A model generated the notes under the pieces. The model was not told the origin of the DNA. It saw only the letters and a list, made by a program, of their open reading frames with translations, and ran no database searches. A stretch of 64,000 bases of DNA from Candidatus Ferrigenium bremense (lineage in GTDB: Bacteria; Pseudomonadota; Gammaproteobacteria; Burkholderiales; Gallionellaceae): NCBI GenBank assembly GCA_019449635.1, contig JAGRPI010000002.1, forward strand, positions 21,749 to 85,748, read 5' to 3'. Below are positions 1 through 47,386 of the stretch, piece after piece; positions within the stretch are counted from its first letter, which is position 1, and every line of letters begins with the position of its first letter. Position numbers and translations under genes: made by a program.

Positions 1-359
1 TGGCGATCAAGTCACTAAATTTCCGCAAAGGCCGATGACCGGTCGTCGGCCGAGCTGCCTGTTGCAGCTACATCATTGACCGTCGGCTTATGGCACTGAG
101 TTACTCGTCGGTCATTGTAATAGCCACCCCGGAAGCAGTCAGAATAGTTGCAAACGAACACTGCTTGCGTGTCTGTAGTGATCTTGCACAAAAGCGGTGA
201 GCAATTGACGATGAAATTCATATCCATACAGCATAGATAACTATCTGATACAAATAGAAGTATTTGATTTTTCTCCCATCTGTGCCGCATAATGTTAAAT
301 GCTAAAAGCCTTTCTCACCCGGGAAAGCGCAACGCAGAAAGAAGTAAGGTGGGCGAAAA

Positions 360-761
360 ATGATTAAACACGGGCTTGACCGCGCATCCGTCGATTTCCT
401 TGCGAAGCTGTCGAAAAGGCTCAAGGCCGAGTCCGGCTTCCATTTCGATACGGTCGCTGACGTTCCGGAGCGCCTCCTGTCAAGGTGGCGCGTGGAAAAG
501 GTCTGGGCGGATGAAGATGCAACCTTTCATTTCTATGGCTACGATCACGGGGGGTCATGCGGTCGGGTTTCGACGGCGATTCTATCCTTCGATCCCAGCA
601 CCATTACCGGGAAGACCGAGAGTGGTCGGATCTATCATCTGATCGGCAAGCCCGGATTCTGCGACGATGCGGACTACGTCATGACAAATTGGTTCTCTCG
701 GTTCAGGCATGAGGACGGAACCGATGAGTTTATCCGGAAATACATGGTCCAAAAGACATGA
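360..761 (+). CDS. Hypothetical protein (133 aa)
   Basis: ATG-start ORF with plausible composition (GRVSTAILSFDP...GKTESGRIYHLIGKPG); overlaps the next ORF by 4 nt, as in an operon. No function recognised. Confidence 0.6.
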   Translation: MIKHGLDRASVDFLAKLSKRLKAESGFHFDTVADVPERLLSRWRVEKVWADEDATFHFYGYDHGGSCGRVSTAILSFDPSTITGKTESGRIYHLIGKPGFCDDADYVMTNWFSRFRHEDGTDEFIRKYMVQKT

Positions 762-1087
762 ACAAAATCATTCTCAAGCACTCGATGACTGACGCCCGTG
801 ATTGCACCCTTGACTGGGAAGCAGATTTTGAAAAAATGGAGATGGTGCTCTACGTAACACTTATTTCACCAGGGCTGATACTGGATTTTTTAAGTTCACT
901 CCCCAGCAGGGATCAACGATTCGCCAGGATTGGCATTGCCAATGCGCTACAGATCAGCAATCGCTTCAATATCAAACTGTTCGTTGCCCATAGCGGCAGC
1001 AAGGTTTGCTACAGGCCAAGGCTATTTTTGTTGCAAGCAATCAGTGAGAAGAATGACCGGCTGGAAATCGAGTTGCTACCTTGCTAA
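758..1087 (+). CDS. Hypothetical protein (109 aa)
   Basis: ATGA start/stop overlap with the upstream ORF; no motif recognised. Confidence 0.5.
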   Translation: MNKIILKHSMTDARDCTLDWEADFEKMEMVLYVTLISPGLILDFLSSLPSRDQRFARIGIANALQISNRFNIKLFVAHSGSKVCYRPRLFLLQAISEKNDRLEIELLPC

Positions 1088-1184
1088 ATTTCTTTCAAAA
1101 TTTCCTCAGTGGATGATATTTTCGAAAGTTTTGGCAACCACCGCCTCTGGCATCGAGCTGTTAACACCGTTGCATTAACCTGTC

Positions 1185-1859
1185 TCAATCTTCAATTTCG
1201 ATACACTTTTTATACTGCCCAAAGCTAGGCAACGGCCTTGAGGGATCCCACCCGCGCCACTCTTTGCCGGGGTACATCCGGGACCAATTCTGGTGAGCGC
1301 GGCGAATAAGACGCGTTAACCAAGTGCGGATCCCGTGGTGCATTGGCCTCCTCGTCTGCATCTCGAGGAAGCCAGCCAGCTCTTGAGGCGCAGTCTTCAA
1401 AAGCTGACCGATATGGTGGTCAAGCTGCCGCTGCACGTCAGGCTTGATATGCCACGACCACCTTGTCCCACCGCCCTCTAACCTGTGCCGTTGATCTGAG
1501 TAGAGCACATAGTCGTTCCAGACAACGCGCCCGGGGTTCGTCCTTGCATCCTTCAACTTGCTGTTTTCCTGGATCGGGCCACCGCCATCACTGGCAATCA
1601 GGAACCAGACATACCCGCCCTCCAGCTCATGTTTTGAGGTAGGCGCGACCACGAGGTGCGCATTCGCCAACCCCTTTTTCTTTCGCCAACTTCTTTGGTG
1701 CGGCTTCAGATCCGTGCCGTAATGCTCGCTGAATTTTGCAGCCAGACTATCAAGTTTTTCACGACTGTCGACCACCCCGCCAACCCACCAATGAAAGCCT
1801 TTAGGCACTATACGCAACAGGAATCGCTGCGCTTCAGATTGTCTTGTGAATAGGTTCAT
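1185..1859 (-). CDS. Hypothetical basic, Trp-rich protein (~224 aa) divergent from the permuted intron RNA
   Basis: Long ORF; ATG at 1859 preceded by AAAGGAG RBS (MNLFTRQSEAQ...). Confidence 0.8.
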   Translation of the reverse strand: MNLFTRQSEAQRFLLRIVPKGFHWWVGGVVDSREKLDSLAAKFSEHYGTDLKPHQRSWRKKKGLANAHLVVAPTSKHELEGGYVWFLIASDGGGPIQENSKLKDARTNPGRVVWNDYVLYSDQRHRLEGGGTRWSWHIKPDVQRQLDHHIGQLLKTAPQELAGFLEMQTRRPMHHGIRTWLTRLIRRAHQNWSRMYPGKEWRGWDPSRPLPSFGQYKKCIEIED

Positions 1860-1965
1860 TAAGTTTTCTCCTTTACGACTATAACGCAATTCAAGCGAAT
1901 CGGTTGACATAAGTCAAGCATAACTTAGTGATTGCAATACATGATTAGTTCAACTTCTATAAATA

Positions 1966-2000
1966 GGTTTTTCTGTATATGAAGGTGGTATAGAAAAACC
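1966..2000 (+). promoter_or_regulatory. Candidate extended -10 promoter for the intron RNA, inside a 9-bp inverted repeat
   Basis: TG-G-TATAGA at 1986-1994; arms GGTTTTTCT (1966-1974) and AGAAAAACC (1992-2000). Predicted start ~2001 coincides with the start of the 5' strand that pairs with the RNA tail. Confidence 0.45.
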
Positions 2001-3335
2001 ATCTTCTTTTTTGTTGAACAACATTTATAGGCACAACGTGCTGGTTTTTGGTTAGCGCATCATCGGGGATGGCGTTTCCTACTTCCTTCTTTCACCAAAG
2101 AAAGAGGAAAGCAGGGAGCGTCAACTCCGCCAGATTCCACACGTCAAGGGACGTATGTCCCGGGGTGCCAACCCCAGCTGTTGTTGCTAACAACGGCAAG
2201 CGCTGCTTTGAGCCGTGTGCAGAGAAATTTGCATGCACGGTTCAAGGACGGGGCAGCAGGGTAATCCCGCGCAAGCGGAGTAAACCTGTTGTTCCAGTCC
2301 ATGACTTACATGAAAGATGTAAGGCGTGCGACCAAGAAACGGGGATACGGAGGAAATGCCGTAAACCCTGCTCCATTAGGCAAGGAAGGAAAATCTTGTC
2401 GACGTGTGAATCGTCAACCGTGGGCTGCATGAAAGTGCAGAACGCGAGCCACCTGGGATGGCAGTCTATGCGGAAGAAATTTCTCGCATCGGGCTCATAG
2501 CGAAGTGTTAGAGAGTTCGGAGTACCTGATTGTGAACGTCGTCACGGACGGAAGCATGAAGGACTGGCTGATAGCTTAAACCGGCAAAGCACCTGCAATG
2601 GTGCAATTGGTGGAGTTGCAAAAAAGCCATTGAAAAATGGCCTGGCACTAGGGGTTGAGATACCCCGCTGCTCATCGAAACAGAGTCAATTCCGTAACCT
2701 TACTACTTTACCGCCTTCAGGAGGGTGAAATCGTGGAGATGTGCCGCGAGATAGAGGGTTGATGATCTGGATGATGTCTATGCAACGCAATAAAGATGGA
2801 AGCTAATTGGGGAAATATCAACGTTTTCGCGTGGGGTGGCACTCATGCGGTAGTCGCGTAACGAACGACCGTCAAACGTAGATATGAGAGAGTGGTCCGA
2901 ATAGAGTAAAAAACCGTTGCCCGAAAGGCGCGGTGACCCGGAACATTGGGCGATCGGCTTTGCAGCTGGTCGGAGAGTCTCGAAAGGCTGAGGTAGTGCG
3001 AAACGTGTGGAAAGACCGGGGAACCGGTACTGGTGATGTACTTGAAGGCCGCTTGGCGGCGGCTGGAGAGAGATGTAGCAACCGATGGGATCTTGACGGA
3101 TCCCATCTCAAGAAACACGGCCATTTTTGGCTAATGAATGCCCGTGAGGGTAGGACGAAGCTCGTCCATATTAAGTGGCAGTCACCGTTTAGCTGACTGT
3201 TGTTCTTCAACAAAAAAGAATGCCGTAAGGCAGGATAAGTAATGGGCGCAAGCCCGATAACGCCGGCATAGTCCCGTGCCGGAGAATCGTTCGAGGACAT
3301 AGAAGCCACCTGCAAAGGTGGCTTCTTCTTTTTTA
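2001..3335 (+). ncRNA. Circularly permuted, ORF-less group II intron ribozyme
   Basis: Canonical 34-nt DV at 2210-2243 (GAGCCGTGTGC-AGA-GAAA-TTT-GC-AT-GCACGGTTC; AGC triad). DVI 2246-2300 with bulged A2296 at -7 and terminal AT (2301-2302). Then a 23-nt spacer, then GTGCG at 2326. Many GNRA hairpins follow and a terminator closes the unit at 3301-3334. No DI upstream of DV and no DV downstream of GTGCG. Confidence 0.88.
3301..3334 (+). terminator. Intrinsic terminator of the intron RNA
   Basis: AGAAGCCACCT-GCAA-AGGTGGCTTCT (11-bp stem) followed by TCTTTTTT. Confidence 0.85.
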
Positions 3336-3574
3336 TTGTTTTGTTGTCAAGGGGTCTGCGTAATATGCACCCCCCCAACTTATTCGCGACCAACGGGAGC
3401 CCGCCATACCGTTGAATTTTGTAGTTTTCATCGCCCCCTACATGGGATAGGGAGGGGAGTGATGAGGGGCAGGGGAAGCCGCGAATGAGGCATCCCATCC
3501 CCTCGTCGTTGGGGATGGCGGCCGCCGGGGCGTTTCAAACGCCCCAAAAGGCGAAGTTCAACTCAGGGAGATTA

Positions 3575-3607
3575 AAATAAAAGACCACCTCCGAAGAAGC
3601 GGTCTTT
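3575..3607 (-). terminator. Intrinsic terminator after the 127-aa gene
   Basis: AAAGACC...GGTCTTT stem followed by a T-rich tract on the minus strand. Confidence 0.55.
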
Positions 3608-3616
3608 ACTTACTGT

Positions 3617-4000
3617 CTACGCCACGCCTGCTTTCGCACATTCCAGCGCTTCCGCCAGAGTCGCAAAACAACCCCAGTACGTCGGTCGATCCCATGCTCC
3701 ACCGTCAAGACAATGCACATCAAATCGAATCCCGTTAGGCCAAGCTTTAAACCACTCATCACAACCAATCGCTTCCCAGTAGGCTCGCCGTTGTTCTGCG
3801 TATTCGTCGGTGTGTTTTGCCAAATAAAAACCAGCCTCACAATACGACACAATATATGGCAGCCCGAAGAACTTTTGATGCGATTGCGGGCGTTGATCGT
3901 TAGGCGTGAAATCAAAACCTTTTGGCAACTTCGGATCGACAAGAATGCCCTTAATGCATCTATTGGCTTGGAACGACTTGCCATTGATAATAAATTTCAT
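3617..4000 (-). CDS. Hypothetical protein (127 aa)
   Basis: ATG with GGAG RBS, downstream terminator, conserved-looking C-terminus (FDVHCLDGGAWDRPTYWG). No function recognised. Confidence 0.7.
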   Translation of the reverse strand: MKFIINGKSFQANRCIKGILVDPKLPKGFDFTPNDQRPQSHQKFFGLPYIVSYCEAGFYLAKHTDEYAEQRRAYWEAIGCDEWFKAWPNGIRFDVHCLDGGAWDRPTYWGCFATLAEALECAKAGVA

Positions 4001-4118
4001 GTTGTTCTCCTTGAAAATTGAAAATTAAAAAGCCTCCCGGCATCAACTTATAATTGGAAATGTAATTCATCCACTTGTAAGACGAACGAGATTCCACCTT
4101 TCCGCCCTGCGCTTTCGA

Positions 4119-4250
4119 AAAGGCAAAGGCAAAGGCAAAGGCAACAACATAGTCGCTACGCTTGGAAAGTTTCTGGCCGCCTTCCTTGGCTGCAGGATGG
4201 CAAGAGCGCCATCCGCACCCAATTCCTTGCGGTTCCCTCGCTGCGCTCGG
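4119..4250. other. Candidate replication origin / single-strand initiation region downstream of rep
   Basis: (AAAGGC)x4 at 4119-4142; CTCGCTGCGCTCGG at 4237-4250, a motif I recall from ColE1-type origin regions. Confidence 0.35.
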
Positions 4251-4354
4251 CCAGTGTTGGGGGTCATACCGCAATCAACGTCAAAGTCAAAGGCCTACTG
4301 GCTGCGCCACAACACCTAGTAATACGCACGGACTTTGGACAGGCTGAAAGCACA

Positions 4355-5755
4355 CTAGGAACACCAGATACTTACGATTGACTTCGATACGCATAACTCT
4401 GCAGCAATCTCGCGAATCGACTTACCCGTTGCCCTCAGTAAACGAGCTGTAGCGCGTTTCTTATTGTTGGATGATATGTATGCCTCACGGCTTACCATAC
4501 CGGCACTCCTGCGCCGTTCCTGTTCGCGGATTCGATGGCGTTCTGCAGCGACGTCGCCACAAATGATTGTCCGAAGCTGCCGCTGCTCTTCATCTGTAAT
4601 CTGAAACAACTGGATCAGCGTATCGTTCTTCGGCGTGTAGAGCGCCGGCATCTCCTTGCCGCCCAGTATCACTGTCCTGCCAGCAGTAAAGTCCTTCGCT
4701 TTTAAGTACAGCGTTGACAGCTCATCGCGGCGCTTAAAGTCGCCAAAACCGAACTCGCGGCACAGCTCAGCGGCCTCATGCCACACCTGGTCAGGATTGG
4801 TTGCGCCAGATAACAACAGGAAATTAAGCGACCAGAACAGCGTATTCATTGACATGCCAGCCGGCACACCACCGCGCAGCTTCATCAACGTCCGGATATC
4901 TTCGACCCGATGCCACGCAAGTTGGCGACCAGAGAAACCACGGAGTCCAGAAGACTTGTTCTTTCCGCCCGGCAACAGCTCCAGATGAGCCTTTTTCGCT
5001 TCTCGCGCTTCCCTGGCTGCGACCATCCGGGCTTTTTCTTCTTCGCTGAAAGGATGGTTTTGCTTCTTCTTGTCGAAGACCGAATCATCCATACGATAAA
5101 CCGATAGCTCCTCAAAGTCATAGCGCTTGGGCAACCCGTCATCGCCGTCGGTAAAATCAAGTACGCGAACCGTGGCGCCTGACTTCGTGTTTATTGTGTC
5201 AACAAGGCGCAACACTCGAGATGCATCCTTCGCATTGGCGTCGGCGCCGATCTCGGCAAACAGATCAACCAACATTGCTTGAGTTGCATTCCAGCGCGGT
5301 AGCGCATGGCGTGGCAATGGCTTTTCCAACAGCCATTTGAGCTGGAGGCCTCGACCGGAGTGGATCGCGATCGAGGGATAGGGAATGTGGTTTTCCTCGC
5401 ACAAATAACGAATTGCTTGGTACGCCCATTCCGGAGTGACGCCGACGTTGTAGCAATCGATGTCAACAAACAACAAGCCAAGCCTCGCAAGATTGACGAT
5501 CCGGCGATTGGGCTTTGTGAATTCAGCTTGCGAGATCCATGTGTCGCGATCTTTCGGCAGCAGCCTGATTACCTCAGGCATGTCCGGCAACCTGTAGCTG
5601 CGCTGATGCTTCCTGTTTGTATCGGGAACCTGATACAAAACTGAGAAAAAGCCGAACCTACTAATGTCATGGTAATAGCTGGCCTCGGCTAGGGGGTCGA
5701 ATAAATCGAGTTGTTCAGTAGCAGGAACGATGTCCTGCGCGACGGCAGTTGACAT
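4355..5755 (-). CDS. Plasmid-type replication initiator, AEP primase-like N-terminus plus C-terminal HTH (~466 aa)
   Basis: LFVDID (motif I), SGRGLQ (motif II-like), DASRVLRL (motif III); C-terminal GKSIREIAAELCVSKSIV HTH; RBS GAAAGGA before ATG 5755. Confidence 0.8.
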   Translation of the reverse strand: MSTAVAQDIVPATEQLDLFDPLAEASYYHDISRFGFFSVLYQVPDTNRKHQRSYRLPDMPEVIRLLPKDRDTWISQAEFTKPNRRIVNLARLGLLFVDIDCYNVGVTPEWAYQAIRYLCEENHIPYPSIAIHSGRGLQLKWLLEKPLPRHALPRWNATQAMLVDLFAEIGADANAKDASRVLRLVDTINTKSGATVRVLDFTDGDDGLPKRYDFEELSVYRMDDSVFDKKKQNHPFSEEEKARMVAAREAREAKKAHLELLPGGKNKSSGLRGFSGRQLAWHRVEDIRTLMKLRGGVPAGMSMNTLFWSLNFLLLSGATNPDQVWHEAAELCREFGFGDFKRRDELSTLYLKAKDFTAGRTVILGGKEMPALYTPKNDTLIQLFQITDEEQRQLRTIICGDVAAERHRIREQERRRSAGMVSREAYISSNNKKRATARLLRATGKSIREIAAELCVSKSIVSIWCS

Positions 5756-5782
5756 GTCCTTATTCCTTTCGGTAATAAGGAC

Positions 5783-5884
5783 TTGCACAAAACGGCGAAA
5801 GCGGTTATATTGCGAATGTCATCGCCAAACGACACGCAGCAATACCCAGGGGCTTGTCACCATAAGGTGCAAGCCCTTTCTATT
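5783..5884 (+). ncRNA. Candidate counter-transcribed antisense RNA (ctRNA) in the rep leader, with promoter and terminator
   Basis: TTGCAC-17 nt-TATATT (5783-5811); hairpin GGGCTTG-T-CACC-ATAA-GGTG-CAAGCCC (5850-5876) followed by TTTCTATTT; predicted RNA ~65 nt. Confidence 0.6.
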
Positions 5885-6269
5885 TGCTGGATTCCAGGCC
5901 CGAGATGGAGTGCTGGGCGCGGAGTTCTTTCACAGTGAGATGGCGGCGGGAGGCTTCCGCAAGCTCACTGGCTGACGGCCGGCCAGTGCGCGCCGCCTGC
6001 TGCTTAGGTGGTTTAGCCTGGATAATTGGCAGGCCGGCCAGAAAGCGAACAATCTCGTCAGGATTGTAGAGACGTTTACCAGCCAGGCGGCGGTATGGAA
6101 TGTTACCAAGCCCACCGCGCAGTCGGTCCTGGCGCAAACGAGTAAGGCCAAACGGTAAGGGAGCGCCCAGCGCACGGAAATGCGCGATGAGTTTTTCATC
6201 GGTGAGGTAGAGGGCTGCTACAGGTGCTGCGATTTGAGCCGCAGCGGGCTGTGGAAGTTGAACACGCAT
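5880..6269 (-). CDS. Excisionase/AlpA-like DNA-binding protein
   Basis: Small basic protein with Xis-like IPYRRLAGKRLYNPDEIVRF segment, located between integrase and rep. Confidence 0.6.
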   Translation of the reverse strand: MRVQLPQPAAAQIAAPVAALYLTDEKLIAHFRALGAPLPFGLTRLRQDRLRGGLGNIPYRRLAGKRLYNPDEIVRFLAGLPIIQAKPPKQQAARTGRPSASELAEASRRHLTVKELRAQHSISGLESSK

Positions 6270-6742
6270 GATGGCGAATTCCCTTTCTTTCAAAAGTTAA
6301 TTCGCCGGGTGAGTTTTTGGGTGTTGCGCGGCTGATCTGTTGGTTACTGGTCCAAGCTCACTCGCTGCCTTCACCGCAGCAATATCCTGTCGGATATGAA
6401 CGTGCTTGCCTGATTCGGCGTAACCGCCGGCTTGAAAGGCTCCTCGCTGCGGCATGCTCCGCAAAGTACCCCGTCCAATCAAGACATAGCCAAATTATAT
6501 TCATTGCTCAACAAAACACAACATCTTTTCTTTAATTTCACTTATCTCCTTTCATCCTGAAAAGAGGAAGCGAAATTTCTGTTGATTTTATTGATTTTTG
6601 CGGCAGCGGCCGGGATGCCAAACAGGAGTCGGTGTCGAGCTTTTTTATCTGCATGGCGTGCAATATGTGGAGAATGTGCGCAAGCAAATCGCCGGAAGCC
6701 TTATGCCACAAGGGTTTGAGGTGTGTTGATACTGCGGCGTTG

Positions 6743-7807
6743 TTACCGCGCAGCCTGCATACGCTCAATTCCGGCGTGCAGCTCATCAACTCCGGCGTGA
6801 TAGTACCTGGCCGCCATAGCTGGCGTCTTCCAGCCCATGATCGCCATTAGGGTGAGCATAGGGTAATGTGGCGCCATGCGTGAAGCCGCCTCGTGGCGCG
6901 TGCAGTGAAAGACGCCACCCTCAATGCCGATTTTCTTGCAAGCCGACGTAAAGGCGCGGGAAAGCCCATCAGCGCTTGTTTTGCGAACCGTCTGGAATAC
7001 AAGGGCGCTTGAGTCGAGCGCCTGCGGTAAAGTGCCCAACAATTCCATGGCGCGAGGGGAGAGGGGCACTAAGCGCTTCTTGCGCTGGCCGGATCTGCTG
7101 GATGTGTCTTTTCCCCACACTTCAACGATCCGCCGCGCCTTGTCGAGGTCGCGCCAAGCCATGCGCATCAATTCATCTTCGCGCATGCCGGTTTCGATGG
7201 CGAACTCCGCGATCACGACGTACTGCTTGTTCCGGCACTTCCTCAACTCGTCGGACAGCTTCGGCCAGATATCCGGAGGGATACGCACGTCGCGCGCCTG
7301 GCTGCCACCCGGCTTGCTGATCTTCTTGGTAGGGTTCTCGATGGCGTAACCCCAATCCCGGCGCGCTGACTCAAACACATTCGAGATGGCGATGAGTTCA
7401 TGCTTGATCGTTTGCTCAGCGACCCCACCGCCACGCTTGGATTTATCCTTCCGGCGCTGCGCGATATGGTCTGCAAAGTCCTTCGGCAAACAGCGCGAGA
7501 TCGGCCGGTCGGCGAGTGGATGACGCAACCAGGCCTTGAGGCGCACAATTTCCTGCTTGGCTCCAAGCTTCTTCAAGCTCACCTCATCAATATACCGCTG
7601 GATTAAGTCGCGCAGTGGCGTGGCATCCAGCAAGCGGGTATCATTGTGCTGCGCGCGTTTGAGGTCGGCTTCCAGCGCCTGAGCCCAGTCTTCAGCCTCA
7701 CGCATTGTCGGAAATGATTTTGATTCTCGATGCATTAGTCCGGTCGCACGATTTTTCATCTCGACCTGCGCCCGGTAGCTACTTTTTCGTTTCTGGATCA
7801 TTGCCAT
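6743..7807 (-). CDS. int: Tyrosine recombinase (phage-type integrase)
   Basis: ETGMREDEL (catalytic R), FHCTRHEAAS (HxxR), MGWKTPAMAARYY (W/Y); adjacent to the att site. Confidence 0.95.
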   Translation of the reverse strand: MAMIQKRKSSYRAQVEMKNRATGLMHRESKSFPTMREAEDWAQALEADLKRAQHNDTRLLDATPLRDLIQRYIDEVSLKKLGAKQEIVRLKAWLRHPLADRPISRCLPKDFADHIAQRRKDKSKRGGGVAEQTIKHELIAISNVFESARRDWGYAIENPTKKISKPGGSQARDVRIPPDIWPKLSDELRKCRNKQYVVIAEFAIETGMREDELMRMAWRDLDKARRIVEVWGKDTSSRSGQRKKRLVPLSPRAMELLGTLPQALDSSALVFQTVRKTSADGLSRAFTSACKKIGIEGGVFHCTRHEAASRMAPHYPMLTLMAIMGWKTPAMAARYYHAGVDELHAGIERMQAAR

Positions 7808-7821
7808 GTTTTTTCTACAAC

Positions 7822-7842
7822 CCCGCCAAAAGCCCGCCAAAA
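7822..7842 (+). repeat. Paired 10-bp direct repeats, likely integrase arm-type sites
   Basis: CCCGCCAAAA at 7822-7831 and 7833-7842, between the int start and att. Confidence 0.45.
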
Positions 7843-7898
7843 CTCAACGGAGTTTATTTTAAGTGATTGATAGAAAAAGGGCAAATAAAAAATAAACT

Positions 7899-7961
7899 AC
7901 GGACTTAAAATCCGTCGAGGCTTAACCCCTCGTACCGGTTCGATTCCGGTTCCGGGCACCA
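7899..7961 (+). other. att site: 3' fragment of tRNA-Leu(TAA)
   Basis: ACGGA-CTTAAAA-TCCGT anticodon arm, long variable arm, GGTTCGATTCC T-arm and CCA end; the 5' acceptor strand and D-arm are missing (AT-rich sequence instead). Confidence 0.9.
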
Positions 7962-7997
7962 ACGAAGGCTTTGAGCGGCAGGCCTCCGCCGCTTGCG

Positions 7998-10469
7998 CTA
8001 TTTGAGTACCGGTTTGGCTCCCCAGATCCTGTCGGCATATTCGCTTATGGTGCGGTCGCTGGAGAATTTTCCCATGCTGGCCACATTTAGGATGGCGCGG
8101 CGCGTCCATTGTTGCCGATCGCGGTATAGCGCCTCCACACGCTCCTGTGCGGCAATGTAGGCTTCATAGTCGGCCAGCAGCAGATAACGGTCCCCGAAGT
8201 GGGTGAGATTGTCGACGATGGGCCGGAAGCGGTCGGCCTGTTCGGGGGAGAAGTAACCCGAGGCGATCATGTCCAGTGCCCATTTCAGTTCGGCGTTGTT
8301 ATGGTAGTAATTCCAGGGGTTGTAACCGGAATTCTTCAGCTCGGCGACTTCCTGCGCGTCAAGTCCGAAGATGAAGATGTTGTCTTTGCCCACTTCCTCC
8401 ATGATCTCGATATTGGCTCCGTCGAGCGTGCCGATGGTCAGCGCGCCGTTGAGGGCGAGCTTCATGTTGCCGGTGCCGGAGGCCTCGGTGCCCGCCGTGG
8501 AGATTTGCTGAGACAGGTCCGCCGCCGGGATGATGATACTGGCGGTGGACACATCGTAATTGGGGATGAAGGCCAGCTTCAGCAGGCCGCGCGCGGCAGG
8601 ATCGTTGTTGACGATGTCGGCGATGCTGTTGGCGAGCTTGATGATGAGTTTGGCGGTGGCATAACCGGGCGCCGCCTTGCCGGAAATGATCACGGTGCGC
8701 GGCACGGCATCCAGCGACGGATTGGAACGGATGCGGTTATACAGGGTGACGACATGGAGCAGGTTGAGAAGCTGCCGCTTGTATTCGTGGATACGCTTGA
8801 CCTGGACATCGAACAGGCTGTCCGGGTCGATCTTGAGAGCCAGCCTGCTCATTACCAGCTCGGCCAGGCGCTCCTTGTTGGCGCGTTTCACGGCACGGAA
8901 TTCGGCCTGAAAAGTACCATCGCCGGCCAGATTGTCCAACTGGCGCAATTGCGACAGGTCGGTGATCCACTCTTTGCCAATGCGGCCGGTGATCAGGCCG
9001 GCCAGTTCCGGGTTGGCCTGGTTCAGCCACAGGCGCGGGGTGATGCCGTTGGTGATGTTGGTGAGCTTGTCCGGGTAGTAGCGGTGGAAATCGGCGAAGA
9101 TGGTGGTTTTCATCAACTCTGAATGGAGTTGCGCCACACCGTTGACATGATGGCTGCCGACGATAGCCAGATGCGCCATGCGCACGCGGCGGCCATGTGT
9201 TTCGTCGATGATGGACATGCGTTTGAGCAGCTCATTGTCGCCGGGGAAACAGTGCATGACTTCCTTTAAAAAACGCTGGTTGATCTCGTAAATGATCTGC
9301 AGATGACGCGGCAGCACCGACTCGAATAGAGCCACCGGCCAGGTTTCCAGCGCTTCCGGCATCAGCGTGTGATTGGTGTAGGCAAAGGTGTTGCTGATGA
9401 TTCGCCAGGCATGATCCCATTCCATGTGATGGATATCCACCAGCAAACGCATCAGTTCCGGAATGGCGATGGAAGGGTGGGTATCGTTGAGCTGGATCGC
9501 CACCTTGTCCGGCAGTTCGTCGAAGGTCTCATGGTGCTTGTGGAAGCGGTGCAGGATGTCCTGCAGCGATGCGCTGACGAAGAAATATTGCTGCTTGAGG
9601 CGCAGTTCCTTGCCCATGTCGGTGGTGTCGACGGGATATAGCACCTTGGAGAGGTTCTCCGATTCATTCTTGTCTTCCACCGCCTTGATGTAGTTGCCCT
9701 CGTTGAAGTACTTGAGGTCGAAATCGCGCGAAGCCTTGGCCGACCACAGGCGCATGTTGTTGACGGTGTCGAGTCCGTAGCCCGGAACCGGCGTGTCGTA
9801 GGCCATCGCCATGACATCGTCGGTGTCTATCCAGTGATGATGCAGCCGGCCGAGTTCATCGGCGTATTGCACCACATGGCCGTAAAACTTCACCGGGTAC
9901 AGTACTTCCGGGCGCGGGAATTCCCACGGATTGCCATAGCGCAGCCAGTTATCCGGATGCTCCACCTGCCAGCCGTCTTCTATCCTCTGGTTGAACATGC
10001 CATATTCGTAACGGATGCCCATGCCGTAGCCGGGCAGGCCGATGGTCGCCATGGAATCGAGAAAACAGGCGGCCAGCCTTCCCAGACCGCCATTGCCGAG
10101 CGCGGCGTCGAATTCCAGTTCCGTCACTCTGTCCAGATTGACGCCGGCTTCGATGCAGGCCTGGCGGACTTCCTCGAGAAAACCGACATTGAGCACGCTG
10201 TTCATCAGGCTGCGCCCGATGAGAAATTCCATGGAGAGGTAGTACACCCGCTTGGCATCGTCACGATAGTAGCGGCGCATGGTTTCCATCCAGCGCTCGA
10301 TCAGGCGATCGCGAACCACTCCCGCAAGGGTGAAGAACCAGTCGCGGTCGGTGGCAGTGATGGGGTCCTTGCCGATGGAAAAAATGAGATGGTTGGTCAG
10401 GGACTGCCTGACCGAATCCAGGTTGAGGTTGAGCGGTTCATGCTGGGAGATTTTCGGTGCTTTTGGCAT
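7998..10469 (-). CDS. glgP: Glycogen/starch phosphorylase (GT35)
   Basis: LGNGGLGRLAACFLDS, QVKRIHEYKRQ and EASGTGNMK (PLP lysine) motifs. Confidence 0.97.
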   Translation of the reverse strand: MPKAPKISQHEPLNLNLDSVRQSLTNHLIFSIGKDPITATDRDWFFTLAGVVRDRLIERWMETMRRYYRDDAKRVYYLSMEFLIGRSLMNSVLNVGFLEEVRQACIEAGVNLDRVTELEFDAALGNGGLGRLAACFLDSMATIGLPGYGMGIRYEYGMFNQRIEDGWQVEHPDNWLRYGNPWEFPRPEVLYPVKFYGHVVQYADELGRLHHHWIDTDDVMAMAYDTPVPGYGLDTVNNMRLWSAKASRDFDLKYFNEGNYIKAVEDKNESENLSKVLYPVDTTDMGKELRLKQQYFFVSASLQDILHRFHKHHETFDELPDKVAIQLNDTHPSIAIPELMRLLVDIHHMEWDHAWRIISNTFAYTNHTLMPEALETWPVALFESVLPRHLQIIYEINQRFLKEVMHCFPGDNELLKRMSIIDETHGRRVRMAHLAIVGSHHVNGVAQLHSELMKTTIFADFHRYYPDKLTNITNGITPRLWLNQANPELAGLITGRIGKEWITDLSQLRQLDNLAGDGTFQAEFRAVKRANKERLAELVMSRLALKIDPDSLFDVQVKRIHEYKRQLLNLLHVVTLYNRIRSNPSLDAVPRTVIISGKAAPGYATAKLIIKLANSIADIVNNDPAARGLLKLAFIPNYDVSTASIIIPAADLSQQISTAGTEASGTGNMKLALNGALTIGTLDGANIEIMEEVGKDNIFIFGLDAQEVAELKNSGYNPWNYYHNNAELKWALDMIASGYFSPEQADRFRPIVDNLTHFGDRYLLLADYEAYIAAQERVEALYRDRQQWTRRAILNVASMGKFSSDRTISEYADRIWGAKPVLK

Positions 10470-10644
10470 GTCACTTCCTTCTCTGTGAACGGGCTGTATA
10501 GGCATGGTTTCTGCGGGCAACAGCCTATTTTGTATTCATGAATTAAGGCGCATAATCCGTACGGTCATCAGGATAAACAATTATGCTGTTCCACGGCCGG
10601 CGTGAAGCGATGACGCAGTTTACATTATTTCTTCGGGAGGATTT

Positions 10645-11565
10645 ATGCGGCTGGCGATGATCGGACTGGGCAAGATGGGCGGCAACATGGTGCGCAGGCT
10701 GCGCCGCGGCGGAATCGAGGTGGTCGGCTATGACCGGTCGGCGGAAGCAGTCGCGCAGCTTGCCGCAGAGGAAGGCATGCTGGCCGCCGCCTCGGTGGCC
10801 GATGCGGTGGCGCAATTGTCCGGCCCGCGCGTGGTATGGCTGATGCTGCCGAGCGGCGAACCGACCGAGCAGCAGGTTCGCGCATTGGCGCCGCTGCTGT
10901 CGCAGGGCGACATCATCGTGGACGGCGGCAATTCCAATTACCATGACAGCCAGCGGCGCGGCGACTGGCTCGCGGAGCAGGGTATCGGCTTCATGGATTC
11001 CGGCACTTCCGGCGGCGTGTGGGGACTGGAGAACGGTTATTGCCTGATGGTCGGGGCGACGTCCAAAGTGGCAAAGACCATGACGCCCATCCTGCAAGCC
11101 CTTGCTCCGTCAGCGGATCGCGGCTGGGCGCATGTCGGGCCGGTCGGCGCGGGGCACTTCACCAAAATGATCCACAACGGCATCGAGTACGGCATGATGC
11201 AGTCCTTCGCCGAAGGGCTGGAACTGCTGCGCGGCAAGCAGGAATTCGCGCTCGACCTGGCGCAGATCACCGAGCTGTGGCGGCATGGTTCGGTGGTGCG
11301 CAGCTGGCTGCTCGACCTCACCGCGGAGGCGCTGAAGCATGACCAGGAATTAACAGCAATTGCACCTTATGTGCCGGATTCCGGCGAGGGGCGCTGGACG
11401 GCGGTGGAGGCCATCGACCAAGGCGTCGCCGCACCGGTGCTGACGCTGGCGTTGCAGATGCGCTTTGCCAGCCAGAACGAGACCGGCTACGGCTACCGCC
11501 TGTTATCCACCATGCGCAATGCCTTCGGCGGCCATGAGGTCAAACACGCGGGCGGGGAAAAATGA
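10645..11565 (+). CDS. gnd: 6-phosphogluconate dehydrogenase, decarboxylating (short form)
   Basis: IGLGKMGGNM, DGGNS, GTSGG, KMIHNGIEYG motifs. Confidence 0.93.
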   Translation: MRLAMIGLGKMGGNMVRRLRRGGIEVVGYDRSAEAVAQLAAEEGMLAAASVADAVAQLSGPRVVWLMLPSGEPTEQQVRALAPLLSQGDIIVDGGNSNYHDSQRRGDWLAEQGIGFMDSGTSGGVWGLENGYCLMVGATSKVAKTMTPILQALAPSADRGWAHVGPVGAGHFTKMIHNGIEYGMMQSFAEGLELLRGKQEFALDLAQITELWRHGSVVRSWLLDLTAEALKHDQELTAIAPYVPDSGEGRWTAVEAIDQGVAAPVLTLALQMRFASQNETGYGYRLLSTMRNAFGGHEVKHAGGEK

Positions 11566-13067
11566 AAACGTCGGAACCTTGTACGCTGGCGATATTCGGC
11601 GCGGGCGGCAATCTGAGCCGCCGCAAGCTGATTCCTGCGCTGTTCCGCCTGGAGATGGCAAAGCGCCTGCCGGAGCAGATGGTGATCCTGGGTTGCGACA
11701 TCGCGCTGCGGCAGCGCGACGAATGGTTGAGCATCGTTGCGGGAATCTTGCGGCCGGTCTATCCGCAGGGAATCGATGAAAGCGCGCTGCAACGCTTTTG
11801 CGCGCGGCTGCATTATTTTGCCATCCCGCCCGGCGATGACGCGGCCTATTCGCGTTTGCAGCAGATGCTGGACGGGAATGCGAATTTTCCTCCGAACATG
11901 ATCTATTACATGGCGGTACGCCCGGCGGACTATCCCGCCATCGTCGAAAAGCTCGGCAATGCGGGCCTGCTCAAACAGAAGAACGGCTGGCGGCGCGTGG
12001 TGATCGAAAAACCCTTCGGTTACGATCTGCTCAGCGCGCAGACGCTGCAAGCGAGCCTGTACCGGCACTTGAACGAACCGCAGATCTACCGCATCGACCA
12101 TTACCTCGGCAAGGGCACGGTGCAGAACGTGATGGTGTTCCGCTTCGCCAACCTGCTGCTGGAGCCGCTGTGGAACCATCACTACATCGACCATGTGCAG
12201 ATCACCCATTCCGAGACCTTGGGTATCGAGGGGCGCGCCGATTACTACGAAGGCGCCGGTGCGTTGCGCGACATGATCCAGAGCCATTTGCTGCAATTGC
12301 TGGCGCTGGTGGCGATGGAGCCGCCGGTGACGATGTCCGCCGAACACCTGCGCGACGAAAAAGTGAAGGTGCTGAAGGCGATCCGCCCGATCACGCAGAA
12401 CGCGGTGCATGCCCACGCCTTCCGCGGCCAGTACGCCAGCGGCAGCATCGACGGCAAGACGGTTCCCTGCTACCTGGAAGAGCCCGGTGTGGCGGCGGAT
12501 AGCACCACGGAAACCTACGCGGCGCTCAAGCTGTTCATCGACAACTGGCGCTGGGCGGGGGTGCCGTTCTACCTGCGCACCGGCAAGCGCATGGCGGAGG
12601 GCAGCTCGGCGATCTGCGTGCGCTTCAAAAGCCCGCCGCAGGATTTGCTGCGCCACACGCGCCAAGGCCCGCCGCAGCCGAACTGGATCATGCTCGGCAT
12701 CCAGCCCAATGATTGCCTGAAAATGGAAATGCAGGTCAAGGTGCCCGGCCTGGACTTGCATACCCGCGCGATCAGCCTGGACGCCACGTACCGCAAGGGC
12801 GATGACGAGGATTACGATGCTTACGAAGGGCTATTGCTGGATGTGATTCAGGGCGATCATTCGCTGTTCCTGCGCATCGACGAAGTGGAAGCGGCATGGC
12901 GCGTGGTCGATCCGATCCTCAAGGTGTGGGCGATGGAACGCGATTTCATCAACGGCTATCCGGCGGGCAGTTGGGGGCCGCGCGGCACCTACCGGCTGTT
13001 CGACCGCGATGACCAGTTCTGGCGCCATTCGTTGAATCTGGACGGCGCTGATTTGCAGGCCTATTAA
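11562..13067 (+). CDS. zwf: Glucose-6-phosphate dehydrogenase
   Basis: EKPFG and YRIDHYLGK active-site motifs. Confidence 0.96.
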   Translation: MKTSEPCTLAIFGAGGNLSRRKLIPALFRLEMAKRLPEQMVILGCDIALRQRDEWLSIVAGILRPVYPQGIDESALQRFCARLHYFAIPPGDDAAYSRLQQMLDGNANFPPNMIYYMAVRPADYPAIVEKLGNAGLLKQKNGWRRVVIEKPFGYDLLSAQTLQASLYRHLNEPQIYRIDHYLGKGTVQNVMVFRFANLLLEPLWNHHYIDHVQITHSETLGIEGRADYYEGAGALRDMIQSHLLQLLALVAMEPPVTMSAEHLRDEKVKVLKAIRPITQNAVHAHAFRGQYASGSIDGKTVPCYLEEPGVAADSTTETYAALKLFIDNWRWAGVPFYLRTGKRMAEGSSAICVRFKSPPQDLLRHTRQGPPQPNWIMLGIQPNDCLKMEMQVKVPGLDLHTRAISLDATYRKGDDEDYDAYEGLLLDVIQGDHSLFLRIDEVEAAWRVVDPILKVWAMERDFINGYPAGSWGPRGTYRLFDRDDQFWRHSLNLDGADLQAY

Positions 13068-38233: not shown

Positions 38234-38344
38234 GCCAACCGTCACGCAAAACTCGTGATGCGAGTTTAGTAGCTCGGAGTTCAAGGCGGACAACCGCCCC
38301 CAGTGCGGTTTTTTTACGTCCGTAAGCATGGCAGGCCAAGTTTT

Positions 38345-38415
38345 GGCGGGCTGTGCGGGGCATCTTCGGATGCGCCGGTTCCTTGACCCGGTCTACTAAC
38401 CTGCACAGTTCCGCC
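38345..38415 (+). ncRNA. C4-type antisense RNA (P1/P7 c4-like)
   Basis: Three-way fold GGCGGGCTGTGCGGG/CCTGCACAGTTCCGCC, GCATC-TTCG-GATGC and CCGG-loop-CCGG. Unpaired TCCTTGA and CTACTAA match target pairs upstream (38264-38286) and downstream (38421-38461). Confidence 0.8.
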
Positions 38416-38469
38416 TCCTCGTTTAGTAGCGGGGGAGCGGGAAATTCAAACCGTTCAAGGAGAATTACC

Positions 38470-46901: not shown

Positions 46902-46978
46902 TGGGGTGGCTGATGGGACTCGAACCCACGACAACTGGAATCACAATCCAGGACTCTACCAACTGAGCTACAGCCACC
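46902..46978 (-). tRNA. tRNA-His(GTG)
   Basis: Full cloverleaf with G-1, anticodon GTG, CCA. Confidence 0.97.
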
Positions 46979-47060
46979 ACTGATGAAGCAATTAGCCATT
47001 CGGCAGAGCCGATAAACAACATCGGCGAGCCGCTGGTTATGAACTTTGCTTGTCTGACAC

Positions 47061-47137
47061 TGGCGTGCCCGACAGGAATCGAACCTGTAACCCCCAGCTT
47101 AGAAGGCTGGTGCTCTATCCGGTTGAGCTACGGGCAC
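47061..47137 (-). tRNA. tRNA-Arg(TCT)
   Basis: Full cloverleaf, anticodon loop CTTCTAA, CCA. Confidence 0.97.
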
Positions 47138-47309
47138 AATTCTTTTCTCTATAAATCCAGATTTCATCCCAACTGCTGCGTTGCGTAAAAAATTTCTTGC
47201 TTGCATATAAAGCATATGCGGCGCTGCGAAATTTTTTCCACGCCCTGCATTTGGGCGAACTCTGAATTTCTAGAGCCACCCTAGGGCTAATTAAAAAGCT
47301 GCTGAAACC

Positions 47310-47386
47310 TGGTCGGGGTGGAGAGATTCGAACTCCCGACATCCTGCTCCCAAAGCAGGCGCGCTACCAGGCTACGCTACACCCCG
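47310..47386 (-). tRNA. tRNA-Pro(TGG)
   Basis: Full cloverleaf, anticodon loop TTTGGGA, CCA. Confidence 0.97.

Follow-up and report, generated by a model that had tools for sequence, protein, structure and literature searches.

Circularly permuted (CP) group II ribozymes were described as a class by Roth, Weinberg, Vanderschuren, Murdock and Breaker in 2021 (iScience, PMC8637638). In these RNAs, domains 5 and 6 (D5-D6) come first and are followed by a linker and by domains 1 to 4 (D1-D4); in vitro, the RNA back-splices, so that the linker comes free as a small circle and the ribozyme stays behind in branched form. In vitro assays of Cte, Pna, Tin, Ara and Tth, five members in all, showed both products (PMC8637638). 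Roth et al. proposed that exon-binding site 1 (EBS1) lies in a conserved terminal loop of D1 and is complementary to the 3' end of the linker, and that the base before EBS1 forms a delta-delta' pair with the first linker base; they also described a moderately conserved linker stem-loop, predicted circles of 15-86 nt and a protein gene, acpG, that is frequently adjacent (PMC8637638). The cryo-electron microscopy of Cte 1 is summarised in a preprint (bioRxiv 10.64898/2025.12.30.696962), and the class, though recently described, is biochemically and structurally well characterised. Here, we report on a stretch of 64,000 nt from Candidatus Ferrigenium bremense (contig JAGRPI010000002.1), called the window, whose own numbering is used throughout. 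Positions 2303-2325 are very probably the linker ("exon") in a CP group II ribozyme that belongs to the Roth-Weinberg-Breaker class, within a proteobacterial sub-lineage with a canonical D5 and a GUGCG 5' end. An initial annotation of this DNA had delimited the same exon but did not recognise the published class.

The elements of the RNA are as follows.
2040-3336, + strand: CP group II ribozyme RNA, consisting of D5-D6, linker, GUGCG plus D1-D4, and terminator
2044-2205, + strand: conserved 5' leader with P1/P2-like hairpins (helices predicted by RNAalifold), holding the conserved AGCGYCAACUCC
2162-2175 (loop UGCCAA) and 2178-2197 (loop UUGCUAA), + strand: leader hairpins
2210-2243, + strand: D5, 34 nt, with AGC triad and GAAA loop (RF00029; covarying helix)
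2244-2302, + strand: D6 with bulged branch adenosine A2296; 3' splice site after U2302 (Rfam alignment and covariation)
2303-2325, + strand: linker/exon GACTTACATGAAAGATGTAAGGC, with a 7-bp hairpin (2305-2311/2317-2323), delta' G2303 and intron-binding site 1 (IBS1) at 2321-2325; predicted circular product (sequence, fold and family table)
2326-2330, + strand: 5' splice-site consensus GUGCG, invariant in 15/15 homologues
2332-2810, + strand: D1, with closing helix 2332-2335/2807-2810 (RNAalifold)
2570-2579, + strand: GAUAGCUUAA within D1, corresponding to the epsilon' region of Roth et al.
2697-2726, + strand: EBS1-bearing stem-loop, stem 2697-2701/2722-2726 and terminal loop 2702-2721 (covariation; RNAalifold)
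2712-2718, + strand: delta C2712 and EBS1 GCCUU (2713-2717), with C2718 as the sixth position
2815-2885, + strand: D2, with UGGCA in the terminal loop at 2837-2841 (RNAalifold)
2886-2893, + strand: purine-rich joining segment J2/3 (GAGAGAG), kept as GAGAG in all homologues
2894-2989, + strand: D3, starting with the E-loop-like motif GAAUAGAG (RNAalifold)
3015-3190, + strand: D4-like 3' hairpins with loops UUGGCG (3053) and UUGACG (3093) and the conserved CCGUUUAGC
3301-3336, + strand: intrinsic terminator and 3' end of the RNA, an 11-bp stem followed by a T-run; the same element is present at the related loci L008, L012 and L016

The D5-D6 part matches the Rfam model RF00029 (group II D5-D6) at 2208-2302 with 52.9 bits against a gathering score of 40 (E 1.5e-7). 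The match stops exactly at 2302, and GUGCG, the group II 5'-end consensus, begins at 2326. The 3' end of the intron lies 23 nt upstream of its 5' end, with both splice sites internal and reversed. Since D5-D6 precede D1-D4 in this way, the element is not a canonical group II intron. The exon sequence at 2303-2325, the GTGCG start at 2326 and all other letters and coordinates quoted in the initial annotation are correct. The open reading frames (ORFs) inside 2000-3500 have no Pfam match, and none of them encodes a reverse transcriptase (RT) or an intron-encoded protein (IEP).

Fifteen distinct homologous RNAs with 45-85% mutual identity share D5, D6, a linker of 17-47 nt, GUGCG and D1-D4. RNAalifold was run on the RNA in separate pieces. 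On the 5' part, the D5 helix covaries across the homologues. The D6 helix is 90.7% paired, with compensatory changes in 7 of 10 pairs, and its CA bulge is invariant (15/15); A2296, bulged 7 nt before the 3' splice site, is likewise invariant in all 15. In the intron body, D1 included, 140 pairs are predicted from 12 sequences, and 106 of these show compensatory changes.

Long-range contacts between loops can also be traced. The UGCCA of the leader loop (2166-2170) is complementary to UGGCA in the D2 loop (2837-2841), as in the published P2-D2 pseudoknot; judged by eye, some compensatory variants occur (L022 and L028, where L numbers denote individual loci), but the L012 clade does not fit. More generally, the UGCCAA-type loops of the 5' leader and the UUGGCA/UUGGCG loops of D2, the D3 region and the 3' hairpins could kiss like the published P1/P2 pseudoknots, with 2184-2190, 2959-2965, 3053-3058 and 3093-3098 as further candidates. 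Two of these loops in the window, UUGCUAA (2184-2190) and UUUGCAG (2959-2965), are each one base off the family consensus (UUGCCAA and UUGGCA, respectively). In addition, the invariant leader motif CGCAU (2056-2060) is fully complementary to the 5' splice-site GUGCG (2326-2330), and the conserved CCG near the 3' end (3186-3188) can pair with GCG at 2328-2330. RNAalifold predicts both pairings; because all the positions are invariant, they lie beyond the judgement of covariation.

The choice of both splice sites rests on the pairings between the linker ends and a single loop of D1. IBS1 (AAGGC, 2321-2325) is complementary to GCCTT at 2713-2717, the sole GCCTT in 2326-3300, just as first annotated. 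In 975-nt shuffles of the same composition, at least one GCCTT occurs in 41% and at least one CGCCTT in 10%; the match by itself is therefore weak evidence, not beyond chance (P about 0.4), and becomes meaningful only through the homologues. The splice-site and loop segments of the 15 distinct RNAs were accordingly compared in a gap-free alignment for seven proposed pairs. Standard pairs fill 83.8% of the cells; sliding the 3' partners by 1-3 columns lowers this to 33-53%. Shuffles give a covariation score of 0.257 +/- 0.033, the real alignment 0.401, and none of 500 shuffles scores as high, a statistic whose significance is overstated by the relatedness of the sequences. Covariation between the loop and the exon ends, which the initial annotation had named as a check on its proposal, is thus present.

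The individual pairs are informative to different degrees. The complementarity of C2712 with the first exon base G2303, also noted at the outset, recurs as delta-delta' pairs of C-G in 7 RNAs and U-A in 7, with one mismatch (n = 15). At EBS1 position 1, C-G occurs six times, U-A five times and U-G four times with zero mismatches; at position 2, there are 12 G-C pairs, two A-U pairs and one mismatch. Positions 3-6 are invariant on the EBS side and are paired in 60-100% of the sequences; the sixth position, C2718, pairs in 9 of the 15 RNAs and not in the window. With these positions excluded, a neighbour-joining tree shows the two delta-delta' states, C-G and U-A, scattered among each other, which points to about three double changes of independent origin. 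For instance, the linker hairpins of the window (C-G) and of L005 (U-A) are almost the same. When the variable columns among about 1100 intron alignment columns were scanned, 2714 alone came out as the best Watson-Crick partner for IBS1 position -2 (12/12), and 2712 tied for the best partner of linker nucleotide 1 (11/12).

The loop also stands at the expected place within the class. It occupies the same columns as the loop UGGAAUCUCG of Polaromonas pPNAP05 in the published CP group II alignment, where AAUCUC is a perfect complement of the linker end GAGAUU, and the G before it pairs with the C that opens the linker. With this G-C pair and the C-G and U-A pairs of the sub-lineage, delta-delta' therefore occurs in three forms across the class. 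On the other hand, a second contact (EBS2-IBS2) was not found: no D1 site is consistently paired with the linker upstream of IBS1, the sites that appear are noisy and inconsistent, and linkers as short as 17 nt leave scant space for IBS2. Of the subgroup IIA traits originally claimed, the delta-delta' geometry holds; the branch adenosine at -7 is generic, and no EBS2-IBS2 accompanies it. Taken together, the comparative data from the 15 RNAs support the proposal that one D1 loop would specify both splice sites, through EBS1-IBS1 and the adjacent delta-delta' pair.

The local structure that presents this loop differs from the one first drawn. The stem 2697-2701/2722-2726 is 98.6% paired, with compensatory changes in 5/5 pairs and a covariation score of 1.11 versus 0.23 in shuffles, and RNAalifold independently predicts it. 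Its loop of about 20 nt (2702-2721) carries the conserved CUUUACY-RYCUUC, with an invariant GAAA after it. The TTTAC(C)/(G)GTGAA hairpin that had been placed around GCCUU fails this examination: each of its three inner pairs is disrupted in 5-9 of the 14 homologues, its covariation score equals that of shuffles, and only its invariant U/A positions always pair.

The CTTACAT/ATGTAAG hairpin of the exon, by comparison, proves to be real, with a folding energy of -7.1 kcal/mol and z = -7.7; none of 200 shuffles folds as well. The window linker is 23 nt long within the family range of 17-47 nt, and in our reading of the folds a stem is predicted in 12 of the 15 linkers, several of them weak. Apart from its ends, the linker is poorly conserved in sequence, and the ribozyme body is conserved. 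A GNRA loop created at the ligation junction (GCGA in the window, GCAA in L005) was considered as a family feature and rejected, as the other linkers give unrelated junction loops of 2-8 nt.

Based on the published relatives, the reaction may be pictured as follows. The RNA (about 2040-3336) would be transcribed divergently from acpG, and its domains would fold into a group II active site. IBS1 (2321-2325) would dock on EBS1 (GCCUU, 2713-2717) in the terminal loop of the D1 stem-loop. The 2'-OH of A2296 in D6 would then attack the C2325|G2326 phosphate, and the freed 3'-OH of C2325 would attack the 3' splice site U2302|G2303, positioned by the C2712-G2303 delta-delta' pair beside EBS1. The permuted order, with D5-D6 upstream and GUGCG downstream, makes a small circle the predicted product: a covalently closed circle of 23 nt, with its 7-bp stem closed by the loops GAAAG and GCGA, together with a branched P1-D6/D1-D4 ribozyme.

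Several observations weigh against this picture. The back-splicing chemistry and the circular product are inferred from published relatives, the splicing products having been seen in those relatives only. The Rfam group-II-D1D4 families have no match to 1850-3450 at E <= 10. The EBS1-IBS1 helix, perfect in the window, is short (5 bp), and in 10 of the 15 RNAs it contains one internal or distal mismatch; by our own reading, such a single mismatch also occurs in several published CP members. The invariance of EBS1 positions 3-6 means that only two pairs and delta carry covariation, among sequences that are related, and the delta-delta' mismatch in L006 is a C.A. From the predicted fold, three of the five IBS1 bases (AAG) would be sequestered in the exon hairpin and would have to unpair for EBS1 binding, so that the hairpin and EBS1 would compete. 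Finally, the two assembled RNA contigs that run across both splice sites (2274-2585 and 2297-2457) are unspliced.

These contigs belong to the evidence for transcription, which consists of assembled contigs only. Contigs identical to 2274-2585, 2346-2800, 2624-2814 and 3169-3326 were found in three freshwater-sediment metatranscriptomes, and none of the contigs lies over the 5' leader or D5 (about 1944-2273). Given these identical contigs, the ribozyme region is probably transcribed; the unspliced contigs could stem from precursor RNA or from DNA contamination. The contig that carries the region in the matching DNA run has an assembler word depth of about 4400.

The unspliced contigs are also what would be expected of a CP group II ribozyme in decay, an inactive relic that has kept the motifs and neither splices nor yields a circle. 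Roth et al. likewise detected no processed RNA in vivo in Polaromonas (PMC8637638), and the two loops that are one base off the family consensus (2184-2190 and 2959-2965) would fit such decay. We nevertheless consider a relic improbable: the catalytic elements are all intact (the AGC triad of D5, GAAA loop, bulged A, GUGCG and J2/3), the helices are upheld by compensatory changes across relatives with no more than 45-70% identity, and the window retains a perfect 5-bp EBS1-IBS1 pairing, a terminator and the acpG partner. A different view would make the branched (or hydrolytic, linear) ribozyme the functional product, with the freed EBS1/delta loop binding, cutting or reverse-splicing AAGGC|G targets to the benefit of the mobile element and the 23-nt piece serving as a by-product or cis-inhibitor. 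There is a small but real chance that this is so. Reverse splicing or cleavage in trans was raised in the discussion of Roth et al. (PMC8637638), the module is carried by integrative elements and by small plasmids, with replication genes next to it, and conservation is concentrated in the ribozyme body and the linker ends. Against such a nuclease, a target of 6 nt would be met about every 4 kb and is too unspecific without further recognition, neither an RT nor an endonuclease partner is encoded, and AcpG has no recognisable fold.

Two other explanations would dissolve the element itself. If the GCCUU/AAGGC and C2712/G2303 matches arose by chance, the true exon-binding site would lie elsewhere in D1. 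The 41% of shuffles that contain GCCTT leave room for this, and in a naive scan for perfect 5-mers (G-U allowed), the EBS loop is surpassed by other D1 sites in the number of homologues in which they match parts of the exon; these sites, however, match exon positions that differ between sequences, or they fall within covarying helices. The 2712-2718 loop alone keeps register with the exon ends, pairing with them across all 15 RNAs and covarying with them, and it is homologous to the published EBS loop, so that a chance match is largely refuted and very unlikely. Fragmented group II introns are common in bacteria, and two unrelated pieces might simply abut here, one being an intron's 3' end and the other the 5' part of a different intron. 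This is hardly conceivable in the face of the comparative data, which refute it: 15 divergent loci keep the same arrangement, and a D1 loop some 410 nt further downstream covaries with the linker's first base; D5 has no D1-D4 ahead of it, no additional D5-D6 follows downstream, and the leader carries the hairpins that are peculiar to the CP class. The linker of a CP group II ribozyme thus remains the preferred identity of 2303-2325.

The neighbourhood of the ribozyme contains the following features.
1185-1859, - strand: AcpG-family protein gene, 224 aa in the public gene call, divergent from the ribozyme
1979-1988, + strand: conserved motif ATGAAGGTGG upstream of the RNA, possibly a promoter or operator
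4355-5788, - strand: 477-aa protein with a C-terminal helix-turn-helix (HTH)
6743-7840, - strand: tyrosine integrase

The motif ATGAAGGTGG stands at the same place in 13 aligned family members and again in L026 and L029, and its purine core TGAAGGT is invariant. No sigma-70 consensus promoter was found in the intergenic region upstream of the RNA. An ORF of 127 aa downstream of the RNA was considered as a conserved gene and dismissed, having no conservation with an equally long ORF in L008.

The acpG gene could also start at an upstream ATG (1910), which would give 241 aa. Its protein aligns with Thermus thermophilus AcpG by BLASTP (E 6e-4 over 192 aa), and hhalign of the 22-member window AcpG family against the Thermus protein gives 91% probability (E 1e-6, 195 columns). 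With tblastn, the window protein matched AcpG genes of Thermus plasmids over 99% of its length and also reached Ralstonia and Paraburkholderia plasmids. It has no match in Pfam, NCBIfam or PADLOC. The AlphaFold2 model is confident (pLDDT 86.3, pTM 0.79), and a Foldseek comparison with the PDB found no similar solved fold (best E 0.64, TM < 0.2).

Metagenomic relatives were found from closer AcpG homologues (52-82% identity), and a DNA pattern search led to the Rhodoferax antarcticus ANT.BR locus. All 15 RNAs adjoin acpG homologues. Where enough upstream DNA is available, the homologous RNA is found, with few exceptions, upstream of acpG and in divergent orientation; L001 and L024 hold too little upstream DNA, and at L023 an insertion sequence (IS) element abuts acpG. 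This element, with HTH_Tnp_1 and rve transposase genes, occupies 230-1350 of L023, where the ribozyme would be expected, and no ribozyme was detected in that locus. In L006 alone, repeated GAGTCACG/AGTCACGG units, iteron-like in appearance, lie between acpG and the ribozyme (about 3050-3400, - strand), within an insert of about 1.2 kb that also holds an ORF-like stretch.

Exact window strings were not present in the supplements of Roth et al.; shorter motifs then found one environmental sequence of the same subtype (2036049146) in the published seed alignment, with GUGCG, a canonical D5 and the loop GCUUUACCACCUUCG. The window RNA therefore belongs to the published class, in which its sub-lineage is rare. 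The RNA of 2036049146 also occurs, with an identical linker, on the 4.7-kb plasmid pM02_c2 (L029, JX194161.1). On this uncultured plasmid, the CP ribozyme and acpG (1-1250 and 1369-2022) make up about 47% of the DNA and lie beside repB and vapD. Other searches were negative: the RNA had no blastn match among PLSDB plasmids, a scan of GTDB genomes with the AcpG profile gave 175 pattern hits of which none was confirmed, and viral contigs scanned with two DNA patterns and the AcpG profile yielded nothing. Our search of the literature after 2021 on AcpG or CP ribozyme function found nothing but one cryo-electron microscopy preprint.

In the window, the integrase and the HTH protein adjoin glgP (7998-10520), and there is no tRNA gene within 1-12000. 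With these two genes nearby, the ribozyme-acpG module looks like part of a small integrative element, on which the pair seems to ride. The relatives adjoin Rep, PriCT, RepC, Toprim or integrase genes, and those on plasmids lie beside replication initiator genes; a replication-gene neighbourhood was likewise noted for the pPNAP05 ribozyme (PMC8637638). The sub-lineage strengthens the link of CP ribozymes to the replication regions of mobile elements. As a long shot, the ribozyme and AcpG of this sub-lineage might serve small plasmids and integrative elements as a module for maintenance or competition. Once back-splicing has taken place, the branched ribozyme, perhaps together with AcpG, would cleave or reverse-splice into nucleic acids in which a hairpin precedes RRGRY|R, through the freed EBS1/delta loop, and the dumbbell circle would be a stable, competitive inhibitor of the ribozyme that released it, giving an RNA-only toxin/antidote or exclusion system.

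Elsewhere in the window, a C4 antisense RNA (RF01695, 61.9 bits), an immunity RNA of P1/P7-type phages, lies at 38339-38421 on the + strand, and a cluster of three tRNA genes lies at 46905-47386 on the - strand. These suggest a prophage or phage-derived region.

Compared with known systems, the window RNA is closest to the CP members of Comamonas testosteroni (Cte 1) and Polaromonas naphthalenivorans (pPNAP05). It shares with them the permuted order, the reversed splice sites and a short stem-loop linker, an EBS loop in the homologous part of D1 that has delta directly 5' of EBS1, and 5' hairpins whose UGCCA loops face downstream UGGCA loops. It also shares the absence of an IEP, the AcpG gene alongside and the location on a plasmid or mobile element. 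Subgroup IIA introns have in common with it the D5/D6 core, GUGYG, the branch-point adenosine, EBS1-IBS1 and the recognition of the 3' exon by delta-delta' just 5' of EBS1. They differ in that they yield ligated linear exons and a lariat, whereas the permuted order would yield a circle and a branched RNA; the window RNA, moreover, has no IEP, no EBS2-IBS2 that could be found, and a D1-D4 region that matches no Rfam D1-D4 model.

Engineered permuted group II introns (Jarrell 1993) and the permuted-intron-exon tools for circular RNA likewise back-splice to circular exons and branched introns. These are laboratory constructs with long exons, whereas the window RNA is natural and its linker measures 23 nt. 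The HYER ribozymes (bioRxiv 10.64898/2025.12.30.696962), compared here by their description, are similarly ORF-less and group II-derived, with exon-binding loops that could target in trans. By the same comparison, HYERs are unpermuted and act by hydrolysis, and CP ribozymes are without known trans activity.

EBS1, delta-delta', small circles and trans targeting are all already in the 2021 paper, and no new mechanism is proposed here. Most published CP members have a GGGCG 5' splice site, a non-canonical D5 (AAGYC... with a GUAAUG loop) and a delta-delta' pair fixed as G-C. The sub-lineage of the window, known here from sequence alone, has instead GUGCG, a canonical D5 above the Rfam threshold, the EBS1 consensus RYCUUC and a delta-delta' that alternates between C-G and U-A. 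The locus adds a sub-lineage of 15 RNAs, among them one from Rhodoferax antarcticus, a sequenced species, and another carried by a 4.7-kb plasmid, and its 23-nt predicted circle beside a compact acpG gene makes it a convenient small test system. What is new is this sub-lineage with its natural covariation at delta-delta' and EBS1-IBS1, together with the corrected stem-loop. In the published majority, delta-delta' and the EBS1-IBS1 positions proximal to the splice site are fixed; their natural covariation here provides independent comparative support for the choice of both splice sites.

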